From Caldilineaceae bacterium (lineage in GTDB: Bacteria > Chloroflexota > Anaerolineae > Caldilineales > Caldilineaceae): DNA of 64,000 nucleotides. Position numbers and translations under genes: made by a program. The first letter of the stretch is position 1. Each line of letters begins with the position of its first letter. The notes under the pieces were generated by a model. That model was not told the DNA's origin. It did not search any database and saw nothing but the letters and a program-made list of their open reading frames with translations. The stretch covers positions 2,151,447-2,215,446 of the forward strand of contig OZ220684.1 of NCBI GenBank assembly GCA_965116395.1. Reading direction: 5' to 3'. Shown here piece by piece: positions 21,093-59,671 of this stretch.

Positions 21093-21118
21093 CTGAAAAC
21101 TAAGAACTGACCAAACTA
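21093..21118. repeat. heptamer tract, family 1, overlapping the stop codon of the isomerase gene
   Basis: CTGAAAACTAAGAACTGACCAAACTA. The minus-strand stop lies at 21116-21118. Confidence 0.6.
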
Positions 21119-30644: not shown

Positions 30645-30670
30645 CAGTGGTTAGTGGCCAGTGGTCAGTG
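30645..30670. repeat. heptamer tract, family 2 (GTGGTTA/GTGGTCA-like)
   Basis: CAGTGGTTAGTGGCCAGTGGTCAGTG, starting 7 nt after the NurA-like stop. Confidence 0.65.
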
Positions 30671-31683: not shown

Positions 31684-34600
31684 TTAACTACCCGTTATCT
31701 GCTGATCTAGAATATCAGTGATCCATAGGAGTTTGAATGCTTCCGCTTTGACTTGCAGTTCTTCTAGTCGCCTCGACCATGCTCCCAATTCGACCACGGT
31801 CAGCTTACTTGTATCGTTAAAGTCCTCCGTAGGTCGAAATTGCTTGCCAATCTCAACGAGGTGTTTCATAGCTTCTCCAAGGAAAGGGCGGTCCAAGTAA
31901 TATTCAAGATCTTCATGATACTTTGTGAGTTCCGTAAATTCGTCGCACACCCGTTGTAGATTCTTATCAAGATTCTCACTTTGGACGCGCAGAAAGCCGT
32001 CAATGACGGTAGAGTCACAGACGGATTCATCGGGAAAGCGGGAAAGGTCTCCAGCGCTCAGAGAAAGAAGAGACAACAATGCAAAGTTTTCCGTGAAACG
32101 AATAGCAGGTTCAAATTGCTCACGATCCCAAATAGCAACTTTCAGGTTGGCCCAATCTTCGTCCGAAATTTCTCTGCTAAATTGACGCAAATGCCTCCAT
32201 GCGTTACCCGATCTCAATTCACTCGAAGGGACAACGAAAATAAACTTCGACAATGCCTTGCCACGGAACAGCGGAATAACTGCGAAACGCTCCAACGAGA
32301 ATAGTGTTGCGTAGTACCGCAAACTCGTAGTGCTTTCAGTGTGTAACGCTTCTCTCAGTGCTTCAAGAGTGGCCTCAACCGCCTTCCAATATGACATTGG
32401 ATGGTCCGCATTTACCAAGATAGTGGTGATGTGCTCCCCTTCGAGCTTCAGATCATCTGTGGCGACATTTGCTGAGTAATGCTCCTTCTTCACTGCCTTA
32501 AGCTTTTCCCTAATTTCCTTTCTCATTTCCTCAAGAGCATTGTGGCGCTCCTTGACAAATGCCTTTACCGCTCCCTTCCTAACCCTCTTCGGATGAAAGG
32601 CAAATTGGTACCACATTGGCCATAATTCCCTAATCAGTTTTTGTTCTCTACTTTCCAATCTGCTATGGTCGTAGTCGGACAAGATCCGATCGAACCGATT
32701 GCGAAACTCGACTTGCAGATGGGCTAGTGCATCTAACGCGACAAGCAGGTTGAAAGTTGCCAAGTCTTCTTTGCCTGTCTCAATGCCTTGCTCCTGGGCA
32801 ATTTGTAAGAGAGTGTCACGCATGTCTGCGTCTGCTCGTCCTAAACTAGAGTTTAACACTGCGACATGCAGTCCTTGAGTCATAAAATTCGACAAATGTC
32901 TCAAAAATCGGTGGAGTATATCAATGTACGATTTGTTTTTCGTGATAGCAGGAAACTGCAGGTAGAGTCCTCCAACGGAGAGGTTGTTTGGATCGTTAGT
33001 AGAATCCTGGACCAAACCTTCGCTCACAAATCCCCATTCATCAACCGCGCTTTGTGGTAGAGGAGGTCGGGAATCGGCGAGGTGCTTGCATTTTTCGAGA
33101 GTCGCATTGTCGAACTGCAGGCCTACTCGTTTCGTGACTTGTCTCTTGCGAAAATAAGCGTCTAGTGCCCGCTGTAGCTGGCCCAACCAAGTGTGCAACT
33201 CCTGTCTAAGTTCTAATATTTCCCGTGCATGCAATTCCCAGTTGTTTGGCCTATAGGGATAGTCGCCTAGCGAACGGAAATGTGCGTTGATTCTTTGTGC
33301 CCAAGGTGGATAGAAATTACTGGAGTCGATAGTTTTTTCTGAATCGTCATACTCTGGCGCCAGAATTCCCAGTCTATGACCATAGCCATGGCTTCCGTAC
33401 TTCTGATGGGTCGGCAAGAGCTTTCTCAGAAGGTCAACACGATACATGGTTTCTTCGTGCAACGAGCGTGAAATTGATTTAGCCTCGTCTTGTACTCCTG
33501 GATCTATCAGGTATACAAAATCAGGGATAAAGTGCGCTCGTAAGGTCGCCCCATCGTCCTCCAATGAAAAACTATTCGTTTCAAGTTTGAAACGTGATTC
33601 AATTTGATGTTGGTATTCACTCACGATCGTTTCGAGTCTTTCTTTATCCGCGATGTGCAACGCATATATTAAATTCGCCAAAGTGTCGAGCGGAGTTTTC
33701 TCGACGACTTCTCCAATTTCTATGTGCTTACACAACAGGGGAGTCAACTGCTGAATTTGAAGATGACTTGACCAAAATAAGACCTGTGCAAGACCTGCAA
33801 AGTCATGTTGTTTAGAAGGTACCATGTTAGTCGGGGCTATATTCCGCAGCCAAGTTCTGGCAGGAACAAATGCCCCTTCTTTGGGCGTTTGCCTCTCCCT
33901 TACGGAGGCAACATACTCCAAGAGTCGGCCCTTTCCACCAAAATCTGATAAATTGTCCCAAATATCGGTTATGTCCTCCTTAGCAATCCCTGTCAGATCA
34001 GAATCCAATAGGAGATACCACGCAGGGCCTCGTTCTTGGTATACTTGATCTATTAATTCCCTATTTGCCTCTGTATAGTCACGCACTCCAAGCCAAAGTA
34101 GTGCCCGCAAAACGCCCGCCACACCTCCCCATGACTTTGGTTGGAATTTATTAAGCTGCTCTATGACGGATGATGCTTCTTCTCTCCGGCGCGAGAAGAC
34201 ATGCAGCAGAAAAATCTCCAAGTCGGATTCCACTAACAGTTGCATACATTCCTTCGCAATTGATTCCCAACTGTAAAGCGTAGAGTCTAAAAGGCTCTCC
34301 AGCATTATGCTAGACCTGACGGAATGTAAACCGGAAATAGTTGAATATTCTGCGTCAACGCGGATCAGATACTCTTTGGCAAAAGTTTCTATAGTTAGAG
34401 GAAGTGCATTTAGGTTAAGATGGCGATGAACAGAACTCAAGTCGAGTTTGGCCTCATATGCTGAGGCCGTAGCCACGAGCCTAAGCAAATGCAGTTCGTC
34501 TGCCTGTAGGTCTCCACGGTTCAGTCGTTCCTGTAGACTTCGAATCTGACTTTCAATGCGGGCTTTTAGTGTTTTTCGCTGTGTTAGGAAGTAAACAAAC

Positions 34601-35877
34601 TCCAATAAAGGACCCCGTCCTCCAAATCCTGCCCAGGCCTCATCAAACGTAAGAAAATTCGGATTTTGCTCTAGGAACTGCGCTGATAGACTTTCGGCTT
34701 CTTTTCTGTCAAAATCGAGTTCCATCTCTTCAAAAAGGAAATGTGCCGCGTAGCCGGTAGCTCGCCGCCAATCTTCTTCGCGTACGGTCACCAAAATCTG
34801 AAGCTTTGGTAGGACTGCAAGAGTACGAACGAGGTTTGGCCAGTCCTGGTCACTAGGAGAAACATCTACATAGACAATACATGGGAGATCAATTGCTTTG
34901 GCGTGTCCTGACAACGCGTTCGCGACGTTCTGGAGTTGCCGCGTATTCTCGATTCGACGGGAGTCCACGAAGAAACGCCATACGTTTGGTGTGTAGTCGT
35001 GGAGGTACCGGAATGCAAGAGTACTCTTTCCTTGCCCTGATGCACCATGCACGATTACTACGTCGTTGGCTTCGAATTTCTTCTGGATCTCCGTCAGTTT
35101 TTCGCTACGAATCATATCTAAATCGGCCAGAATGTGATCATACCGCGCATCCACCCCCCGATAGTACTCATTTGTGAGGCGGTCAGTATCGATTTCATCT
35201 GGGCGCCGTGTATCGATTAGGGGATGAATGGTGTTGAACCATTCGTCATGATACGCGGATCGCTCCTGCAAATACCGACCTACAGACGATAGCTTTTCAA
35301 TTACAGATGAGTATTCGATGCGTTCACTCTGCTCCGAAGCACGAAATACCCAGAACATGAGTAACTCGAAGGCATATAGAAGATCACCTCCTGCTAGCGA
35401 GTCCCGAAGAAAATCAGAAACTCTGGCCTCGAGGTTGGACTCATCTGCCATCGAGAATTTTATGCCAAATAGCTCTTCTATTTCTCCAGAATTGTAGCCA
35501 TATTCTCTGAGCTTCTCTCGCACATGCTGTCTTTCGGGACCCTCCTGGGTCCACGCTTTTTCTATCTCGGGTCCGATTGGTCCAAAGCTTACGATTCTGA
35601 TCGTAGAATCGGGAAAGTTCCTGCGATTGCGAAGAGAACGATCGAAGAAGGAATCGTGCAACTGTGAGGCAAAATCTGATAGAGTCACGTTGTCACTATA
35701 GGCTTTTACCTGCACGGTTTCCAGAAGTTGACCATCGGGTGCATGTATGTCCAAATCCTCTTTACCTTCAGGCAGATACCAAAGTTCTTGATGTTCAACA
35801 TCAAGAAGTCGTGAGAGGATATATAGGGTTTGAAGTCTATACCCCCGTAAAGCCGCTGCCGCTCCATCCCTGGGCAT
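31684..35877 (-). CDS. Avs-like STAND NTPase with N-terminal Cap4/DUF4297-type PD-(D/E)xK nuclease and about 900-aa helical C-terminal region
   Basis: The start was moved to ATG MPRDGAAAALRGYRLQTLYILSRLL. EGKEDLDIH...ETVQVKA is the E-x-D...Q-x-K layout. Walker A is VIVHGASGQGKST, Walker B-like is CIVYVDVS, followed by LQILVTVREEDW. The gene is markedly AT-richer than its flanks. Confidence 0.75.
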   Translation of the reverse strand: MPRDGAAAALRGYRLQTLYILSRLLDVEHQELWYLPEGKEDLDIHAPDGQLLETVQVKAYSDNVTLSDFASQLHDSFFDRSLRNRRNFPDSTIRIVSFGPIGPEIEKAWTQEGPERQHVREKLREYGYNSGEIEELFGIKFSMADESNLEARVSDFLRDSLAGGDLLYAFELLMFWVFRASEQSERIEYSSVIEKLSSVGRYLQERSAYHDEWFNTIHPLIDTRRPDEIDTDRLTNEYYRGVDARYDHILADLDMIRSEKLTEIQKKFEANDVVIVHGASGQGKSTLAFRYLHDYTPNVWRFFVDSRRIENTRQLQNVANALSGHAKAIDLPCIVYVDVSPSDQDWPNLVRTLAVLPKLQILVTVREEDWRRATGYAAHFLFEEMELDFDRKEAESLSAQFLEQNPNFLTFDEAWAGFGGRGPLLEFVYFLTQRKTLKARIESQIRSLQERLNRGDLQADELHLLRLVATASAYEAKLDLSSVHRHLNLNALPLTIETFAKEYLIRVDAEYSTISGLHSVRSSIMLESLLDSTLYSWESIAKECMQLLVESDLEIFLLHVFSRRREEASSVIEQLNKFQPKSWGGVAGVLRALLWLGVRDYTEANRELIDQVYQERGPAWYLLLDSDLTGIAKEDITDIWDNLSDFGGKGRLLEYVASVRERQTPKEGAFVPARTWLRNIAPTNMVPSKQHDFAGLAQVLFWSSHLQIQQLTPLLCKHIEIGEVVEKTPLDTLANLIYALHIADKERLETIVSEYQHQIESRFKLETNSFSLEDDGATLRAHFIPDFVYLIDPGVQDEAKSISRSLHEETMYRVDLLRKLLPTHQKYGSHGYGHRLGILAPEYDDSEKTIDSSNFYPPWAQRINAHFRSLGDYPYRPNNWELHAREILELRQELHTWLGQLQRALDAYFRKRQVTKRVGLQFDNATLEKCKHLADSRPPLPQSAVDEWGFVSEGLVQDSTNDPNNLSVGGLYLQFPAITKNKSYIDILHRFLRHLSNFMTQGLHVAVLNSSLGRADADMRDTLLQIAQEQGIETGKEDLATFNLLVALDALAHLQVEFRNRFDRILSDYDHSRLESREQKLIRELWPMWYQFAFHPKRVRKGAVKAFVKERHNALEEMRKEIREKLKAVKKEHYSANVATDDLKLEGEHITTILVNADHPMSYWKAVEATLEALREALHTESTTSLRYYATLFSLERFAVIPLFRGKALSKFIFVVPSSELRSGNAWRHLRQFSREISDEDWANLKVAIWDREQFEPAIRFTENFALLSLLSLSAGDLSRFPDESVCDSTVIDGFLRVQSENLDKNLQRVCDEFTELTKYHEDLEYYLDRPFLGEAMKHLVEIGKQFRPTEDFNDTSKLTVVELGAWSRRLEELQVKAEAFKLLWITDILDQQITGS

Positions 35878-36030
35878 CACTATTTCCCATAAGTGTATCG
35901 ATTCAAGCACGCAAAAAACTTGTAGAAAAATGTATCGGGGCCAAAAACTGGGCAACGAGCCAAGGGTTATAATGGAGCAGACCGCCAAGCAAGTGGAGAA
36001 GCAGTTAAATTGTCTCGAAACGGCGACGAC

Positions 36031-36318
36031 TTATAGCGGCATCGCCGACGATTCTAACGCCTCGTCCACTTCAGTGCCTTCCCTCACCCACGCCCCAGCC
36101 ACCGCCTCAACCTGCCCCGCACCCCAGCCCCCATTCGCGACCACCAGCCGATACTGCTTCGTAATCGTCTCCCCAGCCCCGAACTCATACACCTCATCGA
36201 ACATGAAGGCGAAGCTGGCGCATGACGTACGGCGTCTGGCGCACGAACCACTTGTTGGGATAACGCAGATTGGCCGGATGGCCCAGAAAGGCCAGCGTTG
36301 ACGTGCGGCCGTTGCTGT
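36031..36318 (-). pseudogene. 5'-truncated, frameshifted copy of the 3' end of a DUF6807/PmoA-family gene
   Basis: It encodes ...STLAFLGHPANLRYPNKWFVRQTPY, then a 1-nt shift, then CASFAFMFDEVYEFGAGETITKQYRLVVANGGWGAGQVEA. This parallels the C-terminus of the intact gene at 37758..38699. DNA similarity is roughly 85% by eye. Confidence 0.7.
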
Positions 36319-36365
36319 CGTCGAGGGTCTAGGTAGGGTGCAGGGGGAACTAGCCTTCGCACTAC

Positions 36366-36827: not shown

Positions 36828-37160
36828 CTACTTCTTAGCTACACGCCCTCCCGGACCGTCTGGCATCTTCTGCAGGACCACATAGCCTCTCGCAATAACT
36901 TCCTGAAAACTCTCGGAAATTCCGTGCCAGTCAAGCACGTCTACCAGAATAGGCAGGTCGGAATCCTCAAATGCTTCCTTCAGCCGCGCTAGCGTGTGCC
37001 GGTCCAATGCCGTAACGCCAACGATCGCGAGGTCGAGGTCGGAATAGTCCTTTGCAGAACATGTCACGCGCGAACCGAAAACGCGCACTTCGCAAGCCGG
37101 CACGTGTTCCGCCAGAATCTGCTTCACCGTTTTGAGGTGATTTGGGCTCAGGTCAATCAT
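36828..37160 (-). CDS. minimal nucleotidyltransferase (MNT) antitoxin
   Basis: VRVFGSRVTCSAKDYSDLDLAIV is the GSx10-12DxD pol-beta nucleotidyltransferase motif. Confidence 0.85.
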   Translation of the reverse strand: MIDLSPNHLKTVKQILAEHVPACEVRVFGSRVTCSAKDYSDLDLAIVGVTALDRHTLARLKEAFEDSDLPILVDVLDWHGISESFQEVIARGYVVLQKMPDGPGGRVAKK

Positions 37161-37575
37161 TGTGGGCTTCCAGCACCTTCAGCAGCTGCCGGGCGTCGTG
37201 CGTGAACCCTCTCACGGCTTCATAGACTTGCTGGGCCTTCTTGCGGTCATAGATATGGGAGGTTGTATTCCTTGCGTCGTGATGCCGCATCCAGCGATCG
37301 ACATCGGAGATAAGTCTATTCGCCGCGGAGAGGCGGTAGAGTTGACGCCTCGTCACACCGTCTGCGGTTTCGGGGCCGACGTTTGTATTCAGCCAGCGCG
37401 CCATCAGTTTCCAGGAGAGCTCGTAGGTTATCTCAAAGTGCTTTACGACGCCGGCGCGAATGCCGATGCGCTCGATTTCGCTCAACCGTCCCATGCGGGC
37501 ATCATCTTCGCTGGCTGTCAGCAGTTCATCCAGCGCTTCGATCGAGTCTCTCAGATTGTCCAGATGAAGAGGCAT
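37153..37575 (-). CDS. HEPN-domain toxin (HI0074-like nucleotidyltransferase substrate-binding protein family)
   Basis: R-x4-H motif RNTTSH near the C-terminus. 8-nt overlap with the MNT gene. The start was moved to ATG MPLHLDNL. Confidence 0.8.
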   Translation of the reverse strand: MPLHLDNLRDSIEALDELLTASEDDARMGRLSEIERIGIRAGVVKHFEITYELSWKLMARWLNTNVGPETADGVTRRQLYRLSAANRLISDVDRWMRHHDARNTTSHIYDRKKAQQVYEAVRGFTHDARQLLKVLEAHND

Positions 37576-37757
37576 GATCTGTCCATAGCAACTGAGTCGT
37601 TCCCGGACCAGATGAGCCTGGCCCCAAAAGTTGGACAACGAGCTAAGGCATATAGTGAAGCAATTTCCCCAGCAGGTGGACGGGAAGTTGAATTCTCAAT
37701 AAGCGGCGACGACACGTACCTGCATTGTTGAAGCGCATCCCGCCTCCAACTCCCACC

Positions 37758-38699
37758 TCATCCCCGCCACGCCTCTGCCGCGGCCTCCACCTGTCCCGCA
37801 TCCCATCCCCCATTCGCAACCACCAGCCGGTATCGCTGCGTAATCGTCTCCCCCGCCTCGAACGCATAAACCTCATCGAACATGAACGCAAAGCTGGCGC
37901 AGGCGTACGGCGTCTGGCGCACGAACCACTTGTTGGGATAGCGCAGGTTGGCGGGATGGTCCAGAAAGGCCAGCGTTGACGCATTGCCGTTGCCGTCGTG
38001 GCGGCCCGTGTAGGCCAGCCAAGGTGCCTGCTCGCCCATCGCCTCCGCGCCTTCGTGCCCTGCCGCGGTGATGACCTCGCCGTTGTCGAACGAGCGCGGC
38101 CCCCGCCAGAACAACCCGCCATAACCGGCCAGCGGACGCCCTTCCGTCGTCGGCGAGCAGATGTGCAGCGTCTCGCCGCGCACATTGCGCAGGCTGGTCG
38201 TGAAGTCCAGCGTCCAGTAGCCGGCCTCCGCGTCGACCGTCTCCACCGCAATGCCCCGCGTCTCGTCGATCCAGTGCTCACCCGCCTGCGTGATCCACGA
38301 GAGCTTCTCCGTCGCCGCGAAGCGGTTGTCGTCCACCTCGATCGACTCCCAGCCGTCATGGCGCTGGCTGCCGTTGTTGGGCAGGTCGACATAGCCCTCG
38401 CCGTGGCGGTAGCTGCCCCCGCCCCAGAAGTTCTGGCCGTCCAGGTGGGCGATCGTCATCTGGATCCCCTTGTGCCACACATGGTCATGCGGGCGGTAGT
38501 TGGTGATCAGGTCGCCGGCCAGCGTGTTGACAGGGTGGAAAAACGGTTTGGGCGACTCGGACTGGGGCATGTCCGGATCATAGATATAGCGGAACAGCGT
38601 AACCGCCTCCCACTTCAATTCAAGCGAAGCAAATCCGGGCGTGCGGTGACTGTGCGGCGCGGTCTTTTCATTGCGTGTATGGGTAAGAGCGAGAGCCAT
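37758..38699 (-). CDS. DUF6807 (PmoA-annotated) family protein
   Basis: KPFFHPVNTLAGDLITNYRPHDHVWHKGI plus the C-terminal FAFMFDEVY...YRLVVANGGW pattern typical of this family. Confidence 0.7.
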   Translation of the reverse strand: MALALTHTRNEKTAPHSHRTPGFASLELKWEAVTLFRYIYDPDMPQSESPKPFFHPVNTLAGDLITNYRPHDHVWHKGIQMTIAHLDGQNFWGGGSYRHGEGYVDLPNNGSQRHDGWESIEVDDNRFAATEKLSWITQAGEHWIDETRGIAVETVDAEAGYWTLDFTTSLRNVRGETLHICSPTTEGRPLAGYGGLFWRGPRSFDNGEVITAAGHEGAEAMGEQAPWLAYTGRHDGNGNASTLAFLDHPANLRYPNKWFVRQTPYACASFAFMFDEVYAFEAGETITQRYRLVVANGGWDAGQVEAAAEAWRG

Positions 38700-38706
38700 G
38701 AGACCT

Positions 38707-38752
38707 CAGTGGATAGTGGTTAGTGGATAGTGGTTGGTGGCTGGCGGTTGGG
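38707..38752. repeat. heptamer tract, family 2
   Basis: CAGTGGATAGTGGTTAGTGGATAGTGGTTGGTGGCTGGCGGTTGG: six to seven imperfect 7-nt units with TAG every 7 nt. Confidence 0.75.
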
Positions 38753-38777: not shown

Positions 38778-38802
38778 ACTAAAAACTGGAAACTAAAAAC
38801 TA
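38778..38802. repeat. heptamer tract, family 1, containing the gatB stop codon
   Basis: ACTAAAAACTGGAAACTAAAAACTA. On the minus strand the gatB end reads AGT TTT TAG and runs into AGTTTCC AGTTTTT. Confidence 0.7.
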
Positions 38803-40382
38803 TCAAGCATTTCCTGCAGCCGCTGACGCGCCGCCTGCGGGTCCGCCTTGCCCTTGGTCGCGCGCATCATCTGGCCCATGAAAAAGCCGAACAGCTTCTT
38901 CTCGCCGCCGCGGTAGCGGGCCAGCTCGTCCGGGTTGCTGTCAAAGGCATCCTGCACCGCCGCGTCAATGACCGACGTATTGCTGACCATCGCCAGCCCT
39001 TCCCGTTCGACAACCGACTGCGGATCGTCTCCGCTCGTGTACATCGACTCCAGCACCTTCTTGCCGGTGTTGGCGTTGATCTCTCGCGCATCCACCATCT
39101 GCACCAGCGCGGCCAGCTGCTGCGGCTGCACCCGCGTATCCGCGATCTGCCGCAAGTCCTGGCCCTCGCCGTCGGCGTAGAGCAGGCGGAACAGTTCATC
39201 CGTGATCCAGTTGGCCATGCGCTGCGGTTTGCCGTCCTCCTGGCCGTACGCGTCCACCGCGGCTTCGAAATAGTCGGCCACCGCCTTCTCGCTGGTGATG
39301 GCGCCTGCATCCGCCGGCCGCAGATCCCACGTCTGCCGGTAGCGCTGCTCCTTCGCGTCCGGCAGCTCGGGCAACGTGCGCGCCTCCTCCTCCACCCACT
39401 GCCGGTCGACCACCAGCGGCGGCAGATCCGGCTCGGGGAAATAGCGGTAGTCCTCGCTGCTCTCCTTCGAGCGTTGCAGCACCGTGCGCTGGCGGTTCTC
39501 GTCCCAGCCCATATTCACCTGCTCGATCACGCCGCCGCTGTTCAGCACATCCGCCTGGCGCTCGGCCTCGTAGGCGATGGCGTTGCGCACCGCGCGCAGG
39601 CTGTTGAGATTCTTCACCTCCACCTTCGTGCCGAGTTCATCGCGCGCGGCCTGCTCCGGCGTGCGCACGCTGATATTGGGCTCGCAGCGCAGCGCGCCCT
39701 CCTCCATGTTGCCGCTGTTGACGCCCAGATAGCGCAGGATCGAGCGCAGTTTTGTCAGGAACGCGTAGGCCTCGTCCGCGCTGGCAATGTCGGCCTCGGT
39801 GACAATCTCCATCAGCGGCATACCGGCTCGGTTCAGGTCCACTAGCGTATGCAGCCCTGCATGCGTGTTCTTGCCCGTATCCTCTTCCAGATGGGCGCGG
39901 TGGACGCGGATGCGTTTGACGCCGCCGTCGGGCAGCTCGATCTCCACCCAGCCGTTGCGGCACAGCGGCAGCTCGTATTGCGAGATCTGATAGCCCTTTG
40001 GCAGGTCCGGGTAATGGTAATTCTTGCGCGCAAAGACCGCCGTCTCCGCGATCTCGCAGTTGAGCGCCAGCCCCGTGCGGATCGTTGCCTCGACCGCGGC
40101 GCGGTTGCTCACCGGCAGCGCGCCCGGCAGGCCCAGACAGACCGGGCAGGTGTGCGTATTGGGCGGCGCGCCCTGATAGTCTGCGCTGCAGCGGCAGAAC
40201 ATCTTCGTCTTCGTCAACAGCTGCGCGTGGACTTCCATACCCACGACGACGTTGTATTCCTGTGTCAATTGCGGCGTCCTCTCGGTGAATCCGTGTGCTT
40301 CAATTCTTCCATCAACATCTCTGCTGGGTTCCAGTCCGCCTGCATGGTCTTCACCTGGAGATGGCATGACCAGCATCGACAT
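38793..40382 (-). CDS. gatB: aspartyl/glutamyl-tRNA amidotransferase subunit B
   Basis: [22 protein letters not shown], and GatB/YqeY C-terminal domain. The ATG overlaps the upstream stop (TAATG). Confidence 0.9.
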
Positions 40383-41407
40383 TACACATCTTCAAGGGAG
40401 GCAAGCAGGACCAGGACCAGCGCCGCCGTGTCTCCCAGCAGCACCGGATTGATGAACTCAATCGTGTCGTCGCGGGTGTTGATGCGTGACATGTCGTTGC
40501 CGGAGAAACTAATAACCGGAATCTCGGCGGAGTACCTGAAAGGGACATGATCGCTACCGCTGTAACCCTCGGTGATGCTCGTATAGGACACTCCCTCTCT
40601 GCTGGCGACTACTGATACATGACTAGTCAACCATCTGTCGCCCGGTCCCCGTAGAAATGTGCCGGATCCCACTGAATCCAGGTTGATCATGATCTTGATG
40701 TCGTCCGACTCTTCTTCGGTCAACTGGTCCACGTAATGCCAACTGCCGCTCATTCCGGTTTCCTCTGAACCAAAGGCGATAATCCGCAGTGTGAACGGAA
40801 AAACCGATACCATCTGGCTCGACCAGGGCGGTTGCGCCAATCTCTCTGCCAGCGCCAGCAGCACGCCTACTCCGGAAGCGTTATCGTTGGCGCCCACTGA
40901 GTTTCGTACCGTGTCGTAGTGCGCTCCCAGGATGACCACGCCTTCACCCTGACCGGGAAGTTCAAGGATTATGTTGCGGGATCCCCTCCGGAGAGACCCT
41001 ATCCGTACTTGAAAGTCCTGCATCTCCGGGCTGTATCCGAACTCGGTAAAGCGGTCCATCAGGAGCTCTGCGGCCTTCGATTCCTCTGCCGTAGCGCTCT
41101 GCCGCCATCCCACTTCTCTCGTCAACTCGCACAGGTGACTGAAAGCGGCAATGGCAAGAGCCTTACGATCGGCGACGCTGAATCTCGCGGTCGCGGGCGG
41201 CGAACCGACATCGGCCAGTGTCTCCTGCGCTACTTCTTCGAGTTCCGCGCAGGACGGTCCCGTTGCGACGTATGGTCTTGTACTTGTAGGGCCGTGGGCG
41301 AGAAAATGAGCAATCTGGTCATCGATGGGCCTGCAGGCTACCAGCAGAATCGCTGCGAGAAGGAAAAGCCCTGCCCGGGAAAATCTCTTGAACTTCCACC
41401 CAGCCAT
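40382..41407 (-). CDS. M28-family aminopeptidase, secreted or lipoprotein
   Basis: Signal/lipobox-like LLVAC. GAHYDTV and [17 protein letters not shown] zinc-ligand motifs. Confidence 0.8.
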
Positions 41408-41469
41408 CGCACCCTGCCTTATTGGAGTTTTCCAGCGCTGGAGAGCCTTGCCTTAATACCTTCTATATG

Positions 41470-41755
41470 GTAACTACTCAGCCGCAACTGATACGCGACC
41501 CTGAATGAGGCGAGCAAAGGTGTTCATTCTCTCCTCATGATTGTCATATGGGCGGTCGGCCGCAAGCGGCCTCCCTTGTGCAGGGGCTGCGCCCCCGCAA
41601 CGCCCCCCTACAAAACCATCCCTCACCGACCGTGTGCATTCTTCGCAACCTGTCGGCTGGCGAGCATGGCGGCGGCTGTATACCAGTTGCGTCACCAAGA
41701 GCCTGAATGGTTCCAGGGATGACTGGCTGGTCAACTGCTGTGGCTTAGTAGTTAC
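41470..41755 (+). mobile_element. MITE-like element, copy B (286 bp, subfamily II)
   Basis: GTAACTACTCAGCC...GGCTTAGTAGTTAC termini and the conserved GC-rich core at 41550-41607. No matching flanking duplication was seen. Confidence 0.75.
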
Positions 41756-41986
41756 GAATTCCGAATGAACGAACACCTTATCCATCTGGTAAAATTGAGC
41801 CTCTTACCAGGAAACCAGCAAAGATAGGTGTCCGATGATGAGTGCCATTGGGGGCAAGCACAGATATTATTATAGGTGACCGTTCCCCTTTTGCACGCCA
41901 TCATAGCATAGGGCCAATTCCGGAACAAAAGAAAACCGTATTCACCCCGTTTCCACTGCAGGGTGACCGCGACTTCCGGCCCTTTA

Positions 41987-42015
41987 TTGACACAGTCCAT
42001 CCCCCCTGCTACCAT
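41987..42015 (+). promoter_or_regulatory. sigma70-like promoter candidate for the TPR-SLT gene
   Basis: TTGACA (41987-41992), 17-nt spacer, TACCAT (42010-42015). About 140 nt upstream of the ATG at 42157. Confidence 0.3.
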
Positions 42016-42156
42016 AACCACATGATCGGCGGTCCCACTGAAATTCGCACGCACACAACGCCCCTAGCGGACTGATATTTCCCTGCAATGATCTTCCGCC
42101 GATCCCCCCATCGCGCCACAGACTCCTCTCGAGCAAGGGCGCATTTCACCTCAATC

Positions 42157-44880
42157 ATGTCAAGCGCCCAATTACATCGATCACAGTTAAGGCTGGCGCT
42201 CTCCCTTTCGATTCTGATTCCGCTCGCCCTGCTACTCACCGCCTGCGGAAACAGAAACGCGACCGCCACTGCCGCCGCCAACCTGTCAGCGCAGACCGAA
42301 ACACCCATACCTCCCGCCGCCAGCCCGCCCGCGCCGGCCGCAACGCCCAGTCCTGCCGCCAATGACACCGCAACAGCCACCCGCGCCGCCGCACCGGCTC
42401 CGTCATCAACGCCAGCGGCACAGTCGAACAGCTTAGCCCCCCGTCAGCGGGTCACGGTTGAGCCATTCGCGCCGGCATCCCCCTTGCAGCAGGCGGTCTG
42501 GTTCCACGAGGTCGGCGACTACAGCCAGGAGCAGCGCCTGCTCAGAACGCTGCTGGCCGACCCCCAGATAACGCTGGCCCAGCAGCAGGAAGCACGCTAC
42601 CAACTCGCTCTCTCCTTTCTCGCCGACGAACAGCCGGTGTCCGCCGCCAACGTGCTGGACCAGTTTTCGCTCCAGGCCGGCTCCCTGCCGGCAGATGACC
42701 CCCGCCGCAGCCGCACCGTTTTCCTGCGCGCCGAGGCGCTGGCCCGTGTGGGCCGCAACGCCGAAGCCGTCGCCGCCTACGAAGCTTTCCTGCAGCAGCA
42801 CCCTCACGTTACCAGTGTCGTCGCAGAGCGTATCGCCGATGCCTGGCTCGCGGCCGGCGACTGGCCGCAGGCCGCCAACGCGTTGCGCCGGGCCGCCGAC
42901 CATGCCGCCAACAACTGGGAAAAAGTTCGCCTTCTCGACCGGCTGGCCGGCACTCTCGAGGGCAATGGCCGCTGGAGCCAGGCCGCCTCTGTCTACGATG
43001 AAATCCTTGCCGCGACCGAGACGCAAGCGGAAGAGCGTAACCGGGACGACGTAGAATTCGATCAAATCCTCGGCTACAGAATATGGAACGTCCACCGGGC
43101 CAGCTATCTGTACCGCGCCGGAATCGCCTACGCAACCGCCGGCGATGAGGAAGCCGCTATCGTCCGCTGGCGTCTGGCCCTGGACGAAGATCCGGAGAGC
43201 AACTCCGCCTACCAGGCCCTCATCCAACTGGTGAACCGCGACGTACCCGTAGACCTCTTTGTACGCGGGCAGGTCGACCTGTTTGCCCAAGCCTACTTCC
43301 CTGCCATCAACGCCTATGACAGATTCCTTCAGGAAGCGCCGCAGGATGACCGCGCCGGGCAGGCCTGGTTGGGGCTTGGCCGCGCCCATATGGAGCTGGG
43401 ACAGTGGGACGAGGCCATCCGCGCCCTGGAACAGGTGATGAACTGGTATCCCGACTGCCCCTGTTTCAGCGATGCCTGGTTCACTCGCGCCCAGCTGGCC
43501 AATGCGCAGGGCTCGCCCGGTGCCGCCCGGCGCATCTATCGCACCTTCGCCAGGGATCACGCTGACCACCCGTTCGCCCCCGAAGCCCTCTGGCGAAGCG
43601 CGCTTTCCGCCATCGGCGCCGGCCGCGGCCTCGATACCGGCTCTGCAGGCCGCGCCGAGAGCTCAGCCGAATTCTTGGTTGAGGCCGTGTCTGACCTGCT
43701 GACGCTGGTGGACAGCTTCCCGGACAGCGCCCGCGCGCCCGATGCGTTGGCCGTGCTGGGGATCGGCGCCTTTACCTACGGTCATGTCGGGCTGGCTGCC
43801 ACCGGCTTTGAACGTCTGCTGGCCGACTATCCCGGTGTGCGGACGGGCACATCAACCTATTGGCTGGGTCGCGCCCGTTACGCCCAGGGCGAGCAAGACG
43901 CGGCCCAGGTCCTGTGGCAGTCGCTCGCCGCCCAAGAGCCGGAAACATATTACGGCGTGCTGGCCGCTGCCGAACTGACGCCGCCGGGCAATCCGGGGCA
44001 GGACATCATCCCCCGCATGGATGCCATGACCGCGGCCGCGCTGCCCAACGACGACGGCAGCCGCGCCTACGCCGAAAACTGGCTCAAGACGTGGCACGAC
44101 GCGCCCGAAACGACCGCTGCCGGCACCAGCAGCGGCAACTCAGGTCTGCCGCAAGCCGTAGCCGAAGACCCTGCCCGGATCGGCGGCGCACTGCTGCTGG
44201 ATCTGGATCTCCGCGCCGAGGGTTTGAAGCTGCTCGAACTGGCGTACTGGCGCTTCCGCGACGAGCCCGCGGCCCTGTTTCCGCTCATGCTTCACTTCGA
44301 AGAACTGGGCGCCAACCGGCTCTCCATCAGCGCCGCTTACCGTCTCATCGAACTCAGTCAGGTCCAACATACCGCCGATGTGCCCCTCTTTATCCAGCGC
44401 GTCGCCTACCCCAGACACTATGCCCACCTCGTCGAAAAGGAAGCCGCAGATTTCGACATCGATTCCCTGCTCTTCTACAGTCTCATCCTTCAGGAGAGCC
44501 TCTTCGAGCCGCCCGCCCGCTCCTTTGCCGGCGCCCACGGCCTGACCCAGATCATCCCCACCACCGGCGCAGAGATCGCGCAGCGCCTCAACTATCCCAA
44601 CTACTCCACCGGCCTGCTAAACCGTCCCTTCGTCAACGTTCGCTTCGGCGCGTACTACCTGCGCTGGGTACGGGATTACGCGCACGAAAACCCCGTCGCC
44701 GCCCTCGCCGGTTACAACGCCGGCCCCGGCAATGCCCGGGTCTGGTTCGAGCGCTCCGACTTCGACGAGGCCCTCTTCATCGAGCGCATCCCTTACAGCG
44801 AGACCCGCCTTTATCTGCAGCGCATCCTGACGCATTATGCGCATTATCTGCGGATATATGGGGGTACTAGTTTTCAGTAG
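42157..44880 (+). CDS. lipoprotein with TPR-like repeats and C-terminal lytic transglycosylase (SLT) domain
   Basis: Lipobox LLLTAC after MSSAQLHRSQLRLALSLSILIPLA. The C-terminus has SLILQESLFE...AGAHGLTQIIPTTG...AGYNAGPGN, the SLT catalytic-E and signature motifs. Confidence 0.8.
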   Translation: MSSAQLHRSQLRLALSLSILIPLALLLTACGNRNATATAAANLSAQTETPIPPAASPPAPAATPSPAANDTATATRAAAPAPSSTPAAQSNSLAPRQRVTVEPFAPASPLQQAVWFHEVGDYSQEQRLLRTLLADPQITLAQQQEARYQLALSFLADEQPVSAANVLDQFSLQAGSLPADDPRRSRTVFLRAEALARVGRNAEAVAAYEAFLQQHPHVTSVVAERIADAWLAAGDWPQAANALRRAADHAANNWEKVRLLDRLAGTLEGNGRWSQAASVYDEILAATETQAEERNRDDVEFDQILGYRIWNVHRASYLYRAGIAYATAGDEEAAIVRWRLALDEDPESNSAYQALIQLVNRDVPVDLFVRGQVDLFAQAYFPAINAYDRFLQEAPQDDRAGQAWLGLGRAHMELGQWDEAIRALEQVMNWYPDCPCFSDAWFTRAQLANAQGSPGAARRIYRTFARDHADHPFAPEALWRSALSAIGAGRGLDTGSAGRAESSAEFLVEAVSDLLTLVDSFPDSARAPDALAVLGIGAFTYGHVGLAATGFERLLADYPGVRTGTSTYWLGRARYAQGEQDAAQVLWQSLAAQEPETYYGVLAAAELTPPGNPGQDIIPRMDAMTAAALPNDDGSRAYAENWLKTWHDAPETTAAGTSSGNSGLPQAVAEDPARIGGALLLDLDLRAEGLKLLELAYWRFRDEPAALFPLMLHFEELGANRLSISAAYRLIELSQVQHTADVPLFIQRVAYPRHYAHLVEKEAADFDIDSLLFYSLILQESLFEPPARSFAGAHGLTQIIPTTGAEIAQRLNYPNYSTGLLNRPFVNVRFGAYYLRWVRDYAHENPVAALAGYNAGPGNARVWFERSDFDEALFIERIPYSETRLYLQRILTHYAHYLRIYGGTSFQ

Positions 44881-44898
44881 TCAGTTCTTAGTTTTTAG
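44867..44898. repeat. heptamer tract, family 1 (complement orientation), containing the SLT stop codon
   Basis: CTAGTTTTCAGTAGTCAGTTCTTAGTTTTTAG. TAG occurs in several frames, and the gene stop lies at 44878-44880. Confidence 0.7.
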
Positions 44899-45190
44899 GT
44901 AACTACTAAGCCATCTACAGTGTCTGTCTTGACCAGCCCCTTATCTCTGCCGCCATTCAGGCAATCTGATTGCGTATTCGGTTGGCGGCAGCCAGGTTGC
45001 TGGAGCGGCACTGCTGGAATGCGCACACAAGGTCGGTGAGCGATGGTTTTGTAGGGGGCGTTGCGGGGGCGCAGCCCCTGCACAAGGGAGGGCCGAAGGC
45101 CCGACCGCCCATAATACAAACATGAGGAGTGAGAGAAAACTCTTGCTGACCTCGTTCAGAGTTGCGAATCAGTTGCGGCTTAGTAGTTAC
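44899..45190 (-). mobile_element. MITE-like element, copy C (292 bp, subfamily I, inverted)
   Basis: Perfect 14-bp TIR GTAACTACTAAGCC / GGCTTAGTAGTTAC. Flanks GTTTTTAG and GTTCTTAG match 7/8. Confidence 0.8.
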
Positions 45191-45265
45191 GTTCTTAGTG
45201 GTGAGTGGACCTTTTGCCGGGAGGCACTGAGGACTGCCGATGGACTGTGGCTCAGCAGTTGCGGT

Positions 45266-45430
45266 TCAGCGATTCGGGGGGGACGTTTCGTTCGAGCCAG
45301 AACAATCGAAGGGAACGAGCGACGATTCAGCTTGGGAGATGTCATGGCGTTCTCCTCTGGTCAGGATGACCTGATAGGGAAAGCCGAGGGCATCAACGAG
45401 GAGTTGGACAGGTCGGTTTCGTTCGACGGT
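45266..45430 (-). pseudogene. IS5-family (IS427-like) DDE transposase fragment
   Basis: RNRPVQLLVDALGFPYQVILTRGERHDISQAESSL resembles the conserved ...VDALGNP..F.LT.GQ.HD...A block. There is no remainder of the gene. Confidence 0.45.
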
Positions 45431-47678: not shown

Positions 47679-48035
47679 GAGACCCCTCTTTTCGGGGCTG
47701 GGCTGAGGAACCTGCAGTTCACTGCCCTGTCCGGCTGTGTGCAGTTTTCAGGGAACCGCGTCAACGAAATGGCAACACTTCTCCTTTTGCCCTGTATAGG
47801 CTCGAGGGTGTCTCTGCAGATATGCGTAAAGTTTCTGCCACTGATGGGCGGCAATCCTTATGGTAGACATTCTACTATTGTCGCTAATGTGACAGAGCAA
47901 TACAAGTGTCAACGAGACCTGGTAGTCAGTTTTTGGTGACCCTGCACTTGAATAGCGGCCAGAGACGGCGCGGGTCGTCAGGCACTGTTCGCTGGCCTCA
48001 ACCGATCCAATTGTCCACGACGGTGGTCCAGCCAG

Positions 48036-48094
48036 GGCGGGGCGTTGCGGGGGCGCAGCCCCTGCACAAGGGAGGGCCGAAGGCCCGACCGCCC
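48036..48094 (-). repeat. isolated copy of the MITE GC-rich core (no arms, no TIRs)
   Basis: The reverse complement reads TGGGCGGTCGGGCCTTCGGCCCTCCCTTGTGCAGGGGCTGCGCCCCCGCAACGCCCC, identical in layout to the cores of copies A and C. Confidence 0.7.
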
Positions 48095-48099
48095 AAACT

Positions 48100-48123
48100 G
48101 CAGTGGTCAGTGGTTAGTGGCGA
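48100..48123. repeat. heptamer tract, family 2
   Basis: CAGTGGTCAGTGGTTAGTGGCGAG, immediately after the orphan core. Confidence 0.6.
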
Positions 48124-48162: not shown

Positions 48163-48196
48163 CCAAAAACTGAAAACTGACTACTAAAAACTGCCG
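48163..48196. repeat. heptamer tract, family 1, ending 2 nt from the permease stop
   Basis: CCAAAAACTGAAAACTGACTACTAAAAACTGCCG. Confidence 0.65.
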
Positions 48197-52534: not shown

Positions 52535-52737
52535 GGGATTGTTCCTGTGTCTGAACGGCAGTGATTTGGGCGTTGTCTGCAGCGACGCTGAAGGGTGGGA
52601 TCCTGGGCGGTCGCTAAGGGATTGGAAGAAGGGAATGGGTTGGATTATACGGGGGGAGGGGGATTGGTGTCAAGCTTTTGGGGGTGGGTGTGGAACTGGA
52701 TGAGGTGGTGTGTGAAGGGAGAGCCAAAGGAAAGGGG

Positions 52738-53244
52738 TTACATTGGCTCCTGATCCTCGGCCAGAGAGGCTGCATAGTCAAAACGTAACTACTCAGCCGC
52801 AACTGATTCGCCAACCTGTACGAGGCGAGCAAAGGTGTTCTTTCTCCCCTCATTGTTGTATTTTGGGCGGTCGGCCGCAAGCGGCCTCCCTTGTGCAGGG
52901 GCTGCGCCCCCGCAACGCCCCCCTACAAAACCATGCCTAACCGACCGTGTGCATTCTTCGCAACGTGTCGGCTGGCGTGCATGGCGGCCGCTGTACACCA
53001 GTTGCGTCACCAAGAGACTGAATGGTTCCAGGGATGACTGGCCGGTCAACTACTGTGGCTTAGTAGTTACGTCAAAACAGGCAAGGATATCTTCGCGCGT
53101 GACAGAAGGATATTCCTGGAGGAGATCTTCGACGCTATCGCCGCAGGCAAGCATCCGCAGGATTAGATATACAGGGATGCGTGTTCCCTGGACACAGGGC
53201 TGTCCGTGACATACGTGGGGGTTGATGGTAATGCGATCGTTCGT
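52738..53244 (-). pseudogene. DUF433 gene disrupted by MITE copy E, with the start codon position mutated
   Basis: Minus strand reads ...NDRITINPHVCHGQPCVQGTRIPVYLILRMLACGDSVEDLLQEYPSVTREDILACFD, then the element, then YAASLAEDQEPM and stop. ACG replaces the ATG of the intact paralog. Confidence 0.7.
52785..53070 (+). mobile_element. MITE-like element, copy E (286 bp, subfamily II) with perfect 8-bp TSD
   Basis: GTAACTACTCAGCC...GGCTTAGTAGTTAC flanked by GTCAAAAC at 52777-52784 and 53071-53078. The paralogous locus has a single uninterrupted GTCAAAAC at 57023-57030. Confidence 0.85.
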
Positions 53245-54372
53245 TTCTTCATCCTCCGGGGCATTCGGCCATATTTCAATAAGACTGGCGCTATGGCTTG
53301 AAAGACACCACGTAGCTGCTTCCTGCGACGCTATGTCCAGTGGCCGAGCTCTCGCAATGCCTGATTCAGAAAACCGTCTGTCCAGCGATTACCGGATTCG
53401 GTTAGTGAGGTCGCCGGAACTGGGCCATCTGAGGGAGACAACGCCTGTGGGGAACCGCTATACTGGACATGAGAACATAGTTTCTGTCTCAATGCAGGCG
53501 GCACCTTCAGTTGGTCGGTTTCGTTTCCCACCATTCCTGGCCGAAGCAACGTTAGCGGTACCTGGTCAACAGTTGGTGCCCTGGAAATCAAGTGTCCTCC
53601 ATGAGCACGTGTCCTCGTGGAGCAACGCCCGGGGCGTTGTGATCTGAAACCCTGTTTCGACACACTATCGAAAGGTGCCATTATGAAACGCGTTCCCCGC
53701 GTCGTCACTGTTTTCGCGTTCTTCTCCCTGCAGCCTGCCATGCTACTGGCACGGGACGAAGAGCGCGCCCTCGCCGGCCTGGCCGGGTAGCTCGCTGCTC
53801 TGGTCGACCGCGTCACCACAGTAGAAGCCAAACTCGAACCCGTCACAACTGTGGGCGACCCTTGCGTCCAACACGCCAGGGGCCAGCAACAGTGCGAAAC
53901 TGTGACCAGGCACCTCGACACCTTCGAGGCGCATCGTAATTCGTCACTGATCGCGCCTGAGGCCGTCCGCTACGACGCCGTTTTCAGTTTCGCCATCCGC
54001 CCGTTTTCTGAGGCCTTCGCCGCCCGCATCGTGACCGAGACCTGGCACGCCCGCGAGGTCCTCGATGTCGGCGAGAGGGTAAACGTTGAGGACAATCGCG
54101 GCGCTCTATCGGTTCCGCCAGACGGCCTACGACGGCCCAAAGCGTGCGCACAACAGAAAGCACAACGCGCCGCGCGACGAGGCAAACCCTGGGCTTCTGT
54201 CAGCTCTCCGCCGGCCAAGCTATGCCCGCACTGCGCGGAGCAGCTGAAGGCGGAGGCCACTACCTGTCGCTTTTTGCAATGCAGCGCTGGCCGCGGACTG
54301 ACGACTCGCCGCCGGTCGAGTACAAGATTGTATCCGTTTCGTGTTTGGAATCTGGAGAGAGGAGAAGTAAAC

Positions 54373-56618: not shown

Positions 56619-56693
56619 ACGGTCGTTGCCCTCCGAGAGGAAGAGAAAGGCGACAGAGGAACGACGCGGACAGACGCGTGTATTAGCCAACCG

Positions 56694-56902
56694 CTACCCA
56701 CACAAATCCTCGATCAGCCGCGTATAAATCTCCACCGCCTCATGTAACTGCTCGACCGCGATCCACTCGCCGACCGTGTGGGCCTGGTCGATGTTGCCGG
56801 GACCGAGCACCAGCGCGTCCATATACTCCTGATAGCACGACGCTTCAGTGCCGTAGGGGACTGTCACCGCACGCGGCGCGCCGGTCGCACGGAATCGCTC
56901 TG
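56694..56902 (-). pseudogene. orphan 3' end (about 68 codons) of an M20 peptidase gene
   Basis: Nearly identical over about 150 nt to the 3' end of the gene at 59893..61005 (GCGTATAAATCTCCACCGCCTCATGTAACTGCTCGACCGCGATCCACTCGCC...). Homology stops at 56902. Confidence 0.75.
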
Positions 56903-56983
56903 GTGGAGCGGCCGGATGCGGCGTATGGGCATATGCGGGAACTGAACGCGGTGGTGTGTGAGGGGTGAGCCACAGGTGAACAG

Positions 56984-57196
56984 CTACATCGAAATCTGCA
57001 CCGCGTCCAGAGAAGCTCCATAGTCAAAACAGGCAAGGATATCTTCGCGCGATATAGAGGGATATTCCTGGAGGATGTCTTCGACGCTATCGCCGCAAGC
57101 AAGCATACGCAGGATTTGATAAACGGGAATGCGTGTCCCCTGGATACAGGCCTGTCCGTGACACACTTGGGGGTCAAAGGTAATCCACTCGTTCAT
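56984..57196 (-). CDS. DUF433-family protein (antitoxin-like)
   Basis: MNEWITFDPQVCHGQACIQGTRIPVYQILRMLACGDSVEDILQEYPSISREDILACFDY matches the DUF433 pattern (dP.vc.G.P.i.GTRipV..il). Confidence 0.8.
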   Translation of the reverse strand: MNEWITFDPQVCHGQACIQGTRIPVYQILRMLACGDSVEDILQEYPSISREDILACFDYGASLDAVQISM

Positions 57197-57451
57197 TGTT
57201 TCATCCTTCAGGGAACGTGGCCATATTTCGATCGGACTGGCGCTCCGGTCTGAGAGATACTATGTAGCAGTCTTTTGTTGCCAATTGAAAGGTTTGGACA
57301 CGATGTACGTGACTTCGTAACCGGACAGTTGGGAGCCAGGGAGACAATGCCAGGGGCAACGCCAATCCCCGCGCCCGCGACATCGCGCCTATGCGGTTGG
57401 ACTATCCTGCTTGGAGGTATATCCGGGAAATGGAATTACATTGCTTCACTA

Positions 57452-58536: not shown

Positions 58537-58815
58537 ATGGCTAAGAGGAGACATACGCCGGAGCAGGTAATCAAAAAGCTCAGAGAGGCTGAGGTGGCGC
58601 TAGCCGAGGGCGGCACAGTGGCTGAGGCTGCGCGCCGGATAGGCGTGACCGAGCAGACCTTCTATCGGTGGCGCAGCGAGTATGGGGGTCTCAGGATCGA
58701 CCAGGCCAGGCGCCTGAAGCGTCTGGAGTTGGAGAACAGCCGTCTGAAGAGAGCGGTGGCGGAGCTGACGCTGGACAACCAGATACTGCGGGAGGCGTCT
58801 GAGGGAAACTTCTGA
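58537..58815 (+). CDS. IS3-family transposase OrfA (HTH)
   Basis: MAKRRHTPEQVIKKLREAEVALAEGGTVAEAARRIGVTEQTFYRWRSEYGG...LELENSRLKRAVAELTLDNQIL. Confidence 0.85.
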   Translation: MAKRRHTPEQVIKKLREAEVALAEGGTVAEAARRIGVTEQTFYRWRSEYGGLRIDQARRLKRLELENSRLKRAVAELTLDNQILREASEGNF

Positions 58816-59671
58816 GTCCTTCACGTCGTCGCCAGTGCGTTGACCACGTGAAGGCGCGCTTTGGGGTTTCGGAGCGACGCGCCTGCCGGGTGCTGGGTCA
58901 TCCTCGCTCCACACAGCGATACAAGCCAAGCCCTGCGGACGATGAGAAGGCGTTGACTGAGGAGATCGTGGAGTTGGCCAGTCAGTTCGGCAGGTACGGC
59001 TACCGTCGGATCACCGCCCTTCTGAGGCATCGCGGCTGGCATGTGAACCACAAGCGTGTAGAGCGGATTTGGCGACGTGAAGGGCTTAGGTACCGGCGAA
59101 GCAACCGAAGAGAGGGCGTCTGTGGTTCAATGACGGCTCGTGTGTGCGTCTGCGGCCTGCGTGGAAGGACCATGTGTGGGCCTACGACTTCGTGTATCTG
59201 AGGCTCCATGACGGCACAGGAGTGCGGTTGCTGACCGTCATCGACGAATACAGCAGGGAGTGTCTGGCGATCCAGGCTGCCCGCAGCATGCGGTCTGCCG
59301 ATGTGATAGAGGCGCTGGCCGAGTTGATGGTGTTCAGAAGCGTGCCCGACCATATTCGGTCGGACAACGGGCCGGCGTTTACGGCCCGGGCTGTGCGCGA
59401 GTGGCTTGGGCGGGTGGGAGCCAGGACGCTCTATATCGAACCTGGGTCGCCGTGGGAAAATGGCTACATCGAGAGTTTCAACGGGAAGTTGAGGGACGAG
59501 CTGCTGGACAGGGAGCTCTTCTATACGTTGCTGGAGGTGCGCGTGTTGACGGAGCGCTACAGACGGACTTACAACCGGATCAGACCGCACAGTTCTCTGG
59601 GCTACCGGCCGCCGGCGCCTGAGGCCCTCTTGCCTGCCGACCCTGTCCCCGTGCCTGTTGGACTAACATAA
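58803..59671 (+). pseudogene. IS3-family transposase OrfB (DDE), with an extra frameshift
   Basis: The -1 frame opens at the slippery heptamer GGGAAAC (58803-58809). A second shift near 59086-59091 separates ...RIWRREGL from (VPA)KQPKRGRLWFNDGSCVRLRPAWKDHVWAYDFV. The DDE core continues with ...IRSDNGPAF...PGSPWENGYIESFNGKLRDE. Confidence 0.75.

Follow-up and report, generated by a model that had tools for sequence, protein, structure and literature searches.

The window analysed here, a 64-kb stretch of a Caldilineaceae genome, contains five full copies and one fragment of a single repeat family, situated 18-62 nt from start or stop codons. A repeat search, BLASTN and nhmmer with a profile made from 35 copies agree on these six places, all of which a first-pass annotation had reported and which were recovered here independently; the 35-copy profile finds no further copies in the window. 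The full copies measure 286-293 bp, apart from one 452-bp composite, and they are arranged among the neighbouring genes as follows.

20641-21092, plus strand: Copy A, a 452-bp composite of the putative MITE with a type I right arm (nhmmer 6e-55 for 20641-20834 and 6e-30 for 20949-21092); termini GAAACTACGCAGCC and GGCTGAGTAGTTAC; core 20719-20774; duplication CTGAAAAC (8/8) at 20633-20640 and 21093-21100
20820-20952: extra partial unit inside Copy A, ending in heptamers and CTGCAGTT, after which CCGACCGTGTGTGCGCATTCCAG is found again
41470-41755, plus strand: Copy B, 286 bp, type II right arm (nhmmer 2e-84); termini GTAACTACTCAGCC and GGCTTAGTAGTTAC; core 41550-41606; hairpin allele GGCCGCAAGCGGCC; flanks TCTATATG and GAATTCCG, without target duplication; 62 nt upstream of the start codon of an M28 peptidase gene (40382-41407, minus strand)
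44899-45190, minus strand: Copy C, 292 bp, type I right arm, inverted (nhmmer 2e-88); core 45055-45110; hairpin allele GGGCCTTCGGCCC; duplication GTTTTTAG/GTTCTTAG (7/8); 18 nt past the stop codon of an SLT/TPR gene (42088-44880), within a heptamer array
47963-48097, minus strand: Fragment D, ~135 nt (nhmmer 6e-24), with core 48039-48094 and ~75 nt of right arm
52785-53070, plus strand: Copy E, 286 bp, type II right arm (nhmmer 3e-83); core 52865-52921; duplication GTCAAAAC (8/8) at 52777-52784 and 53071-53078
53071-53244, minus strand: truncated DUF433 gene (PF04255, E = 3e-24, profile positions 1-53 of 56)
56938-57268: paralogous empty site for Copy E, in which 56938-57030 aligns with 52692-52784 (75%) and 57023-57268 with 53071-53316 (83%)
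56984-57196, minus strand: intact DUF433 paralogue with an uninterrupted target site (PF04255, E = 3e-25)
63361-63653, plus strand: Copy F, 293 bp, a mosaic of a type I right arm with hairpin allele GGCCGCAAGCGGCC (nhmmer 6e-83); core 63441-63497; duplication GTTATTTC/GTCATTTC (7/8); 34 nt upstream of the start codon of an alanine-racemase-like gene (62239-63327, minus strand)

Each element is built from a left arm of ~80 nt, a 56/57-nt GC-rich core of two hairpins and one of several right arms. The division of right arms into two types, proposed in the first-pass annotation, is right within the window, but at least four arm subfamilies exist across related genomes. Fragment D, previously given as 59 nt, does exist but extends over ~135 nt; it has no left arm and no termini, and its right arm belongs to a fifth type that is 88% identical over 136 nt to an element at one of the loci fetched from related genomes (L027). 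Heptamers and CTGCAGTT (48096-48120) lie on its 5′ side. Copy A had been counted among the full copies, and it lies at the coordinates given, but it is a composite in which a second partial unit is accompanied by a repeated CCGACCNTGTGTGCGCATTCCAG; this composite form, of 450-490 bp, makes up a dispersed subfamily in its own right (L084, L089). Two alleles of the first hairpin segregate in the window, GGCCGCAAGCGGCC in copies B, E and F and GGGCCTTCGGCCC in copies A, C and D, which bears out the description of Copy F as a mosaic.

The ends of these elements have the properties of a DNA transposon. The 14-bp inverted termini, GTAACTACTNAGCC and GGCTNAGTAGTTAC, show a column identity of 0.87-0.93 among 35 copies, compared with 0.80-0.87 over the first 50 nt of the left arm, near invariance in the core and 0.58-0.80 in the right arm. 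Shared termini of this length had been noted before, although copies A and F have GAAACTACGCAGCC as their left end, which departs at two positions from the consensus then given. The reported target duplications were likewise found, with perfect octamers at copies A and E (CTGAAAAC and GTCAAAAC), two pairs that agree at 7/8 positions and none at Copy B. For a broader view, a set of 42 complete copies was assembled from the window and from 93 Caldilineaceae blocks that represent seven genomes, in which simple copies measure 282-333 bp and composites 351-560 bp. The two flanking octamers are identical in 12 of these 42 copies; 17 copies show a single difference and 4 show two, so that 33 of 42 have no more than two mismatches, where unrelated octamers would be expected to show ~6. 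The duplicated octamer begins with G or C in 23 of 29 cases and ends in C (14) or T (8), with an AT-rich interior, giving a target pattern of S-W6-C/T; the sequence that flanks the duplications is AT-rich as well. Such targets and flanks fit with the intergenic location of the elements in a genome of 60% GC.

Direct evidence for insertion comes from Copy E, which, as the first-pass annotation had stated, lies inside a DUF433 gene (Pfam PF04255). The gene is truncated exactly at the right end of the copy, near its own 3′ end, and the paralogous empty site within the same window carries GTCAAAAC once (57023-57030), compared with twice around Copy E. The sister genome OZ242287 yielded no orthologous empty site to set against Copy B: the intergenic region cannot be aligned there and synteny is broken. 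The M28 peptidase gene itself is conserved in OZ242287 (77% identity), and this value indicates that the host of the window is a related yet distinct member of this Caldilineaceae lineage. A coding function for the elements was considered and rejected, since the ORFs of 62-103 aa that overlap the window copies have no Pfam match and are frame-shifted between copies by 1-nt indels, which occur in the core as well. Taken together, the inverted termini, the 8-bp duplication, the paralogous empty site and the lack of a coding signal uphold the reading of the family as a MITE.

The abundance of the repeat in the window (5 copies in 64 kb) is unusually high, as would be expected if the copies had arisen by an assembly artefact or a local segmental duplication. 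The copies have different flanks, however, with duplications of their own, and as wholes they are only 75-93% identical (7-25% divergence); the family is also found at unrelated loci in seven other genomes, and the source contig, which belongs to ENA assembly ERZ25070917, is 5.52 Mb long and carries ‘351x’ in its name. The probability of such an artefact is thus close to negligible, and the family is not confined to this locus but dispersed in at least seven other genomes. The earlier figure of one copy per ~10 kb is close to what the window holds (~1 per 11 kb), although it cannot be generalised to related genomes, in which at least 26-34 exact-core copies occur per 5.7-5.9 Mb.

Searches with a 28-nt piece of the core found it in at least 93 blocks of 8 kb, all from seven species-level Caldilineaceae MAGs, which together hold at least 107 exact cores (at least 34, 26, 26, 9, 7, 4 and 1 per genome). 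No other taxon appeared among the matches listed for the exact core, and there was no match to viral contigs or plasmids. About one third of the cores in these blocks are not enclosed by recognisable GTAAC termini, and these are explained as truncated copies, internal tandem duplications or parts of a second, nested family. The subfamilies with tandem duplications end in heptamers and CTGCAGTT. Repeated units with a constant 3′ end and variable 5′ restarts can be read as retroelement-like, but these junctions are found again in transposed subfamilies; internal duplication accounts for this more simply, and the retroelement reading was set aside.

The nested family just mentioned is also non-autonomous; it has inverted ends (G)GTGCATCCCA, measures 425-930 bp and encloses a degenerate GTAAC-type MITE, core included. 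It is absent from the window and was seen at the following places in the fetched loci.

L007, 7395-7870: GTGCATCCCA-ended element
L015, 6005-6935: GTGCATCCCA-ended element
L018, 3427-3878: GTGCATCCCA-ended element
L063, 3200-3762: GTGCATCCCA-ended element
L076, 4952-5431: GTGCATCCCA-ended element
L083, 90-570: GTGCATCCCA-ended element
L086, 2518-2943: GTGCATCCCA-ended element

Other repeats were noticed in these genomes. Tandem arrays of ~50-70-bp units are built around a GC-rich hairpin, GGGGCAGGCCTTGTGCCTGCCC, at L006 (~3550-3850) and L069 (~5600-5900), and single GGGGCAGGCCTTGTGCCTGCCC hairpin units follow the core at several loci.

A candidate for the enzyme that moves the elements was sought by searching the fetched Caldilineaceae blocks for MITE termini that lack a core. 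Both ends of an insertion sequence were found in OZ242287 (loci L064 and L077), and the two pieces overlap exactly to give a 495-aa ORF that scores 299 bits against the NCBIfam model transpos_IS66 (NF033517; cut-off 180) and contains the Pfam domains DDE_Tnp_IS66 (PF03050), zf-IS66 (PF13005) and DUF6444 (PF20042). A protein-database entry 99% identical to this transposase belongs to a cluster with 32 member sequences. Three complete copies of the IS exist in OZ242287, each of them 1,566 bp long with GTAACTACTAAGCC at both ends, and all three are flanked by perfect 8-bp duplications (GTAGTCAG, GTTTTTAG and CCCTGATC). The element consists of 71 nt, a single ORF of 1,488 nt and a further 7 nt, and so is without the TnpA/TnpB accessory genes of classic IS66 elements. 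OZ242287 carries this IS together with the MITE (at least 26 exact cores), and the two share identical 14-bp termini and the same length of duplication (8 bp).

The terminus is a hallmark of this transposase clade, since 42 of 80 metagenomic relatives (40-85% amino acid identity) are complete IS elements with GTAACTACTCAG-type ends. These relatives span 1.49-1.98 kb, 39 of them falling within 1.49-1.64 kb, and perfect 8-bp duplications flank four (L104, L135, L160 and L168). The OZ242287 element also has the GTAA start that is typical of IS66 inverted repeats, for which the published examples read GTAAGCG... and GTAACCG... (PMC12888890); such termini and a duplication of 8 bp are together indicative of the IS66 family. 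From its ISBst12 group, the nearest published element is ISDge4 of Deinococcus geothermalis, which has ends GTGACTACTCAGCA and GTAACTGCTCAGCA and an 8-bp direct repeat, and whose transposition has been observed (PMC12898284). The MITE, with the end GTAACTACTCAGCC, shares this terminal sequence, and the duplication has the same length; unlike members of the ISBst12 group, however, the window elements encode nothing, are ~290 bp rather than ~1.5 kb long and have an interior unrelated to that of the IS. On these sequence comparisons, the elements are very probably non-autonomous DNA transposons (MITEs) that would be moved in trans by a single-ORF DDE transposase of the ISBst12 group of the IS66 family.

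No copy of the partner IS was detected in the window, and among the best 120 transposase clusters none lies on a contig of 5,522,450 bp, the length of the window's own. In view of the 7-25% divergence between copies and the two decayed duplications, transposition in the genome of the window may be old.

The elements might instead be internal-deletion derivatives of the IS66-family element that have lost the transposase gene, and the identical 14-bp termini are consistent with such an origin. In addition to the termini, the IS and the MITE share one subterminal segment of 23-28 nt (CAGGGATAAAGGGTTGGCCAAGA; 87-91% identity). This segment is equally far from the terminus in the two elements but has the opposite orientation, and no other similarity exists between them; for this reason the interior of the MITE is not a deletion remnant of the IS, and its left arm, core and right arms are foreign to it. 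The core, moreover, is absent from the 1,566-bp IS, which has no room for it. A simple deletion derivative is therefore highly improbable, and a MITE with an interior of other origin is preferred. The CAGGGATAAAGGGTTGGCCAAGA segment was located at the right end of the IS (L175, ~2944-2971) and in the right arm of the MITE (for example, at 21034-21060 in the window), and it may be a candidate subterminal binding site for the transposase. The core is missing from the IS and so is not required in cis by the transposase, whose requirements do not explain why the core is invariant.

A different route of spread is known for REP/BIME and IS200/IS605-type palindromic elements, which lack terminal inverted repeats and target duplications and whose hairpin ends are recognised by HUH enzymes. 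GC-rich hairpins, a mosaic build, intergenic positions and an orientation bias (see below) are features that the Caldilineaceae elements have in common with such elements, and movement in single-stranded form by a tyrosine (HUH) transposase would of itself produce a strand or orientation bias. It would not account for the regular inverted termini and the 8-bp duplications, and the transposase that matches these termini is a DDE enzyme, so this mode of mobility is extremely unlikely here. Mosaic intergenic repeats with effects at the RNA level also include BOX elements of pneumococcus and Correia elements of Neisseria, besides the BIME/REP elements of enterobacteria, and the elements described here resemble all of these in their recombined modules, stable hairpins, positions near gene ends and possible effects on transcripts. 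REP/BIME and BOX are without IS-type inverted termini or regular target duplications, which by contrast characterise the present family, and it has no similarity to Rfam entries.

The core is the most conserved part of the element. It is identical at all six places in the window except for the two alleles of the first hairpin, and across genomes three such alleles occur (GGGCC-TTC-GGCCC, GGCCG-CAAG-CGGCC and GGGCG-CAAG-CGCCC), all of which are perfectly paired. Each of the three is found both on type I and on type II right arms, which shows that sequence has been exchanged between copies, in recombination or in gene conversion. The second hairpin has rare variants, and these are compensatory as well, with a loop-closing C-G pair replaced by G-C and an A.C mismatch replaced by G-C. 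In a curated alignment, pairing of the named structure amounts to 91.9%, compared with 39-60% for slid controls, and double-sided changes are seen in 2 of 18 modelled pairs. Folding favours the bottom strand, on which a G.U pair takes the place of the A.C mismatch and CUUG forms one of the loops (-122.8 versus -113.5 and -120.1 versus -107.4 kcal/mol). The fetched loci were chosen by an exact match to the core, and their core conservation is partly a product of that choice; the window copies are an unbiased sample in this respect.

The orientation of the elements relative to genes is also uneven. Where complete copies lie between genes that run in the same direction, the sense strand is the bottom one 14 times and the top one twice (p = 0.004), as judged with a crude GC3-based ORF caller at loci selected for an exact core, and at other core-bearing places the counts are 20 and 9, respectively. 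The informative window copies (A, E and F), whose neighbours are supported by Pfam matches, agree with this bias. Since near-symmetric termini should allow insertion either way, the most likely source of the bias is selection that acts on read-through transcripts once a copy has been inserted; a replication-strand effect is the alternative.

These features would be expected if the repeat were primarily a structured RNA, that is, a small RNA gene or a cis-regulatory element that spread by duplication or recombination and for which the transposon-like ends are secondary. The window cores are identical apart from the first-hairpin alleles, compared with 75-93% identity of the arms, and the fully paired alleles, the compensatory variants of the second hairpin, the stabler bottom-strand folds with their G.U pair and CUUG loop, and the orientation bias could all be taken to favour it. 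Rfam, however, gives 0 matches in the whole window at the gathering score and only chance-level ones in 41400-45300 when E values up to 10 are admitted (E >= 2.5), and no promoter- or terminator-like site was recognised inside copies B, C, E and F with simple consensus patterns (-35/-10 hexamers; a GC-rich hairpin followed by a T-run). Covariation in the core is limited to the two double-sided pairs, part of the conservation in the fetched loci follows from their selection, and the arms show almost no covariation within subfamilies, on which ground conserved RNA structure in the arms was rejected. A three-way junction closed by GGGCG/CGCCC was rejected too, since the variants break this helix and none of them is compensatory. 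The 8-bp duplications, the empty site and inverted termini that are the same as those of an IS speak directly for transposition; they make a primarily RNA-based origin very unlikely and leave a MITE that carries a hairpin core as the favoured account.

A role for the core within the MITE is a separate matter. The double hairpin may be a module kept by selection that acts on the bottom-strand transcript or on DNA, a proposal that we regard as rather doubtful at present; such a module could make neighbouring mRNAs more stable, process or insulate them, or serve as a binding site for a host protein. If this is true, the hairpin would represent a distributed regulatory part, which Caldilineaceae have spread by means of an IS66-type MITE and of the second, nested family. 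The idea that the core is itself a tiny, independently mobile element was rejected, as neither a MITE copy that lacks it nor a pair of sequences with and without it was found.

From these observations, a sequence of events can be proposed. An IS66-family transposase would recognise the termini common to IS and MITE, and the MITE would be inserted through the same staggered 8-bp cut as the IS. Insertions would then be retained chiefly in AT-rich spacers between genes, frequently within heptamer arrays by gene ends, and the modular cargo of left arm, core and right arm would be exchanged among copies through recombination or gene conversion. Together, the bias in orientation and the stronger pairing in bottom-strand hairpins suggest that copies may be read through from neighbouring genes and so become subject to selection at the level of the transcript.

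Heptamer arrays at the ends of genes are a recurrent feature of this DNA. They are made of CACTGAC/CACTAAC-like or ACTAAAA/ACTGAAA-like units and often end in CTGC(A/C)GTT.

20618-20644: heptamer array
30645-30670: heptamer array
38708-38751: heptamer array
38778-38802: heptamer array
44881-44898: heptamer array
48101-48120: heptamer array
48166-48193: heptamer array
63702-63734: heptamer array

Arrays adjoin copies A, C and F and Fragment D, two of the three full-length IS elements of OZ242287 have such an array as their insertion site, and some MITE subfamilies in the fetched loci have an array inside the element. Cyanobacteria have comparable STRR heptamers, and there small dispersed repeats can be nested in MITEs. 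The likeness to the present case lies in heptamer arrays by gene ends and in small repeats nested within others; the differences are that the phylum and the heptamers are other ones, and that here the arrays are at the insertion site of IS copies and of copies A, C and F.

Resident IS elements are known to move bacterial MITEs in trans, as with MITEPsy1 of Pseudomonas syringae (PMC3189936) or MITEAba12 (PMC6382973). Like these, the Caldilineaceae elements are short, non-coding and dispersed, have inverted termini that match an IS and a duplication of fixed length, and can interrupt genes. They differ in having an IS66/ISBst12 partner and a modular interior with an invariant hairpin core, and in that their mobilisation is predicted from sequence. 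The first-pass annotation had not recognised the family, and the searches agree with it, for there was no Rfam match, no named MITE was identified in Rfam or the literature searched, which also gave no paper on IS66-derived MITEs or on MITEs of Caldilinea. It would therefore appear to be a new MITE family of a well-known type, as far as these sources show. What goes beyond the ordinary is a clean MITE/IS pair for the ISBst12 branch, an invariant core whose alleles have been shuffled, and the bias in orientation.

For the Caldilineaceae, which are abundant but little-studied filamentous Chloroflexota, these results provide a defined MITE family together with a candidate partner transposase. The family can be useful for genome annotation and for explaining assembly breaks, strain-level rearrangements and gene disruption, as at DUF433 here. 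The MITE/IS pair is also of value for the ISBst12 branch of IS66, a group in which little is understood of how transposition proceeds, and the invariant core and the orientation bias make a testable case of the possible exaptation of a mobile repeat.

Several other features of the window were noted.

31684-35988: low-GC island (46-47% compared with ~60%) with a 1,434-aa ORF that has weak matches to novel STAND NTPases, possibly a horizontally acquired defence-type gene
36088-36326 and 37767-38004: direct repeat of ~240 bp, 86-89% identical and 1.68 kb apart, which flanks small genes, including one for a nucleotidyltransferase substrate-binding-like protein (37153-37638)
56693-56992: partial match of 300 nt, the third, to the tandem 370-aa ORFs listed below, upstream of them
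58537-59671: IS3-family element, unrelated to the MITE, with an HTH_Tnp_1 ORF (58537-58815) and an rve/rve_3 ORF (59144-59671)
59893-61005 and 61093-62205: tandem paralogous ORFs of 370 aa, the second of which matches M20 peptidases
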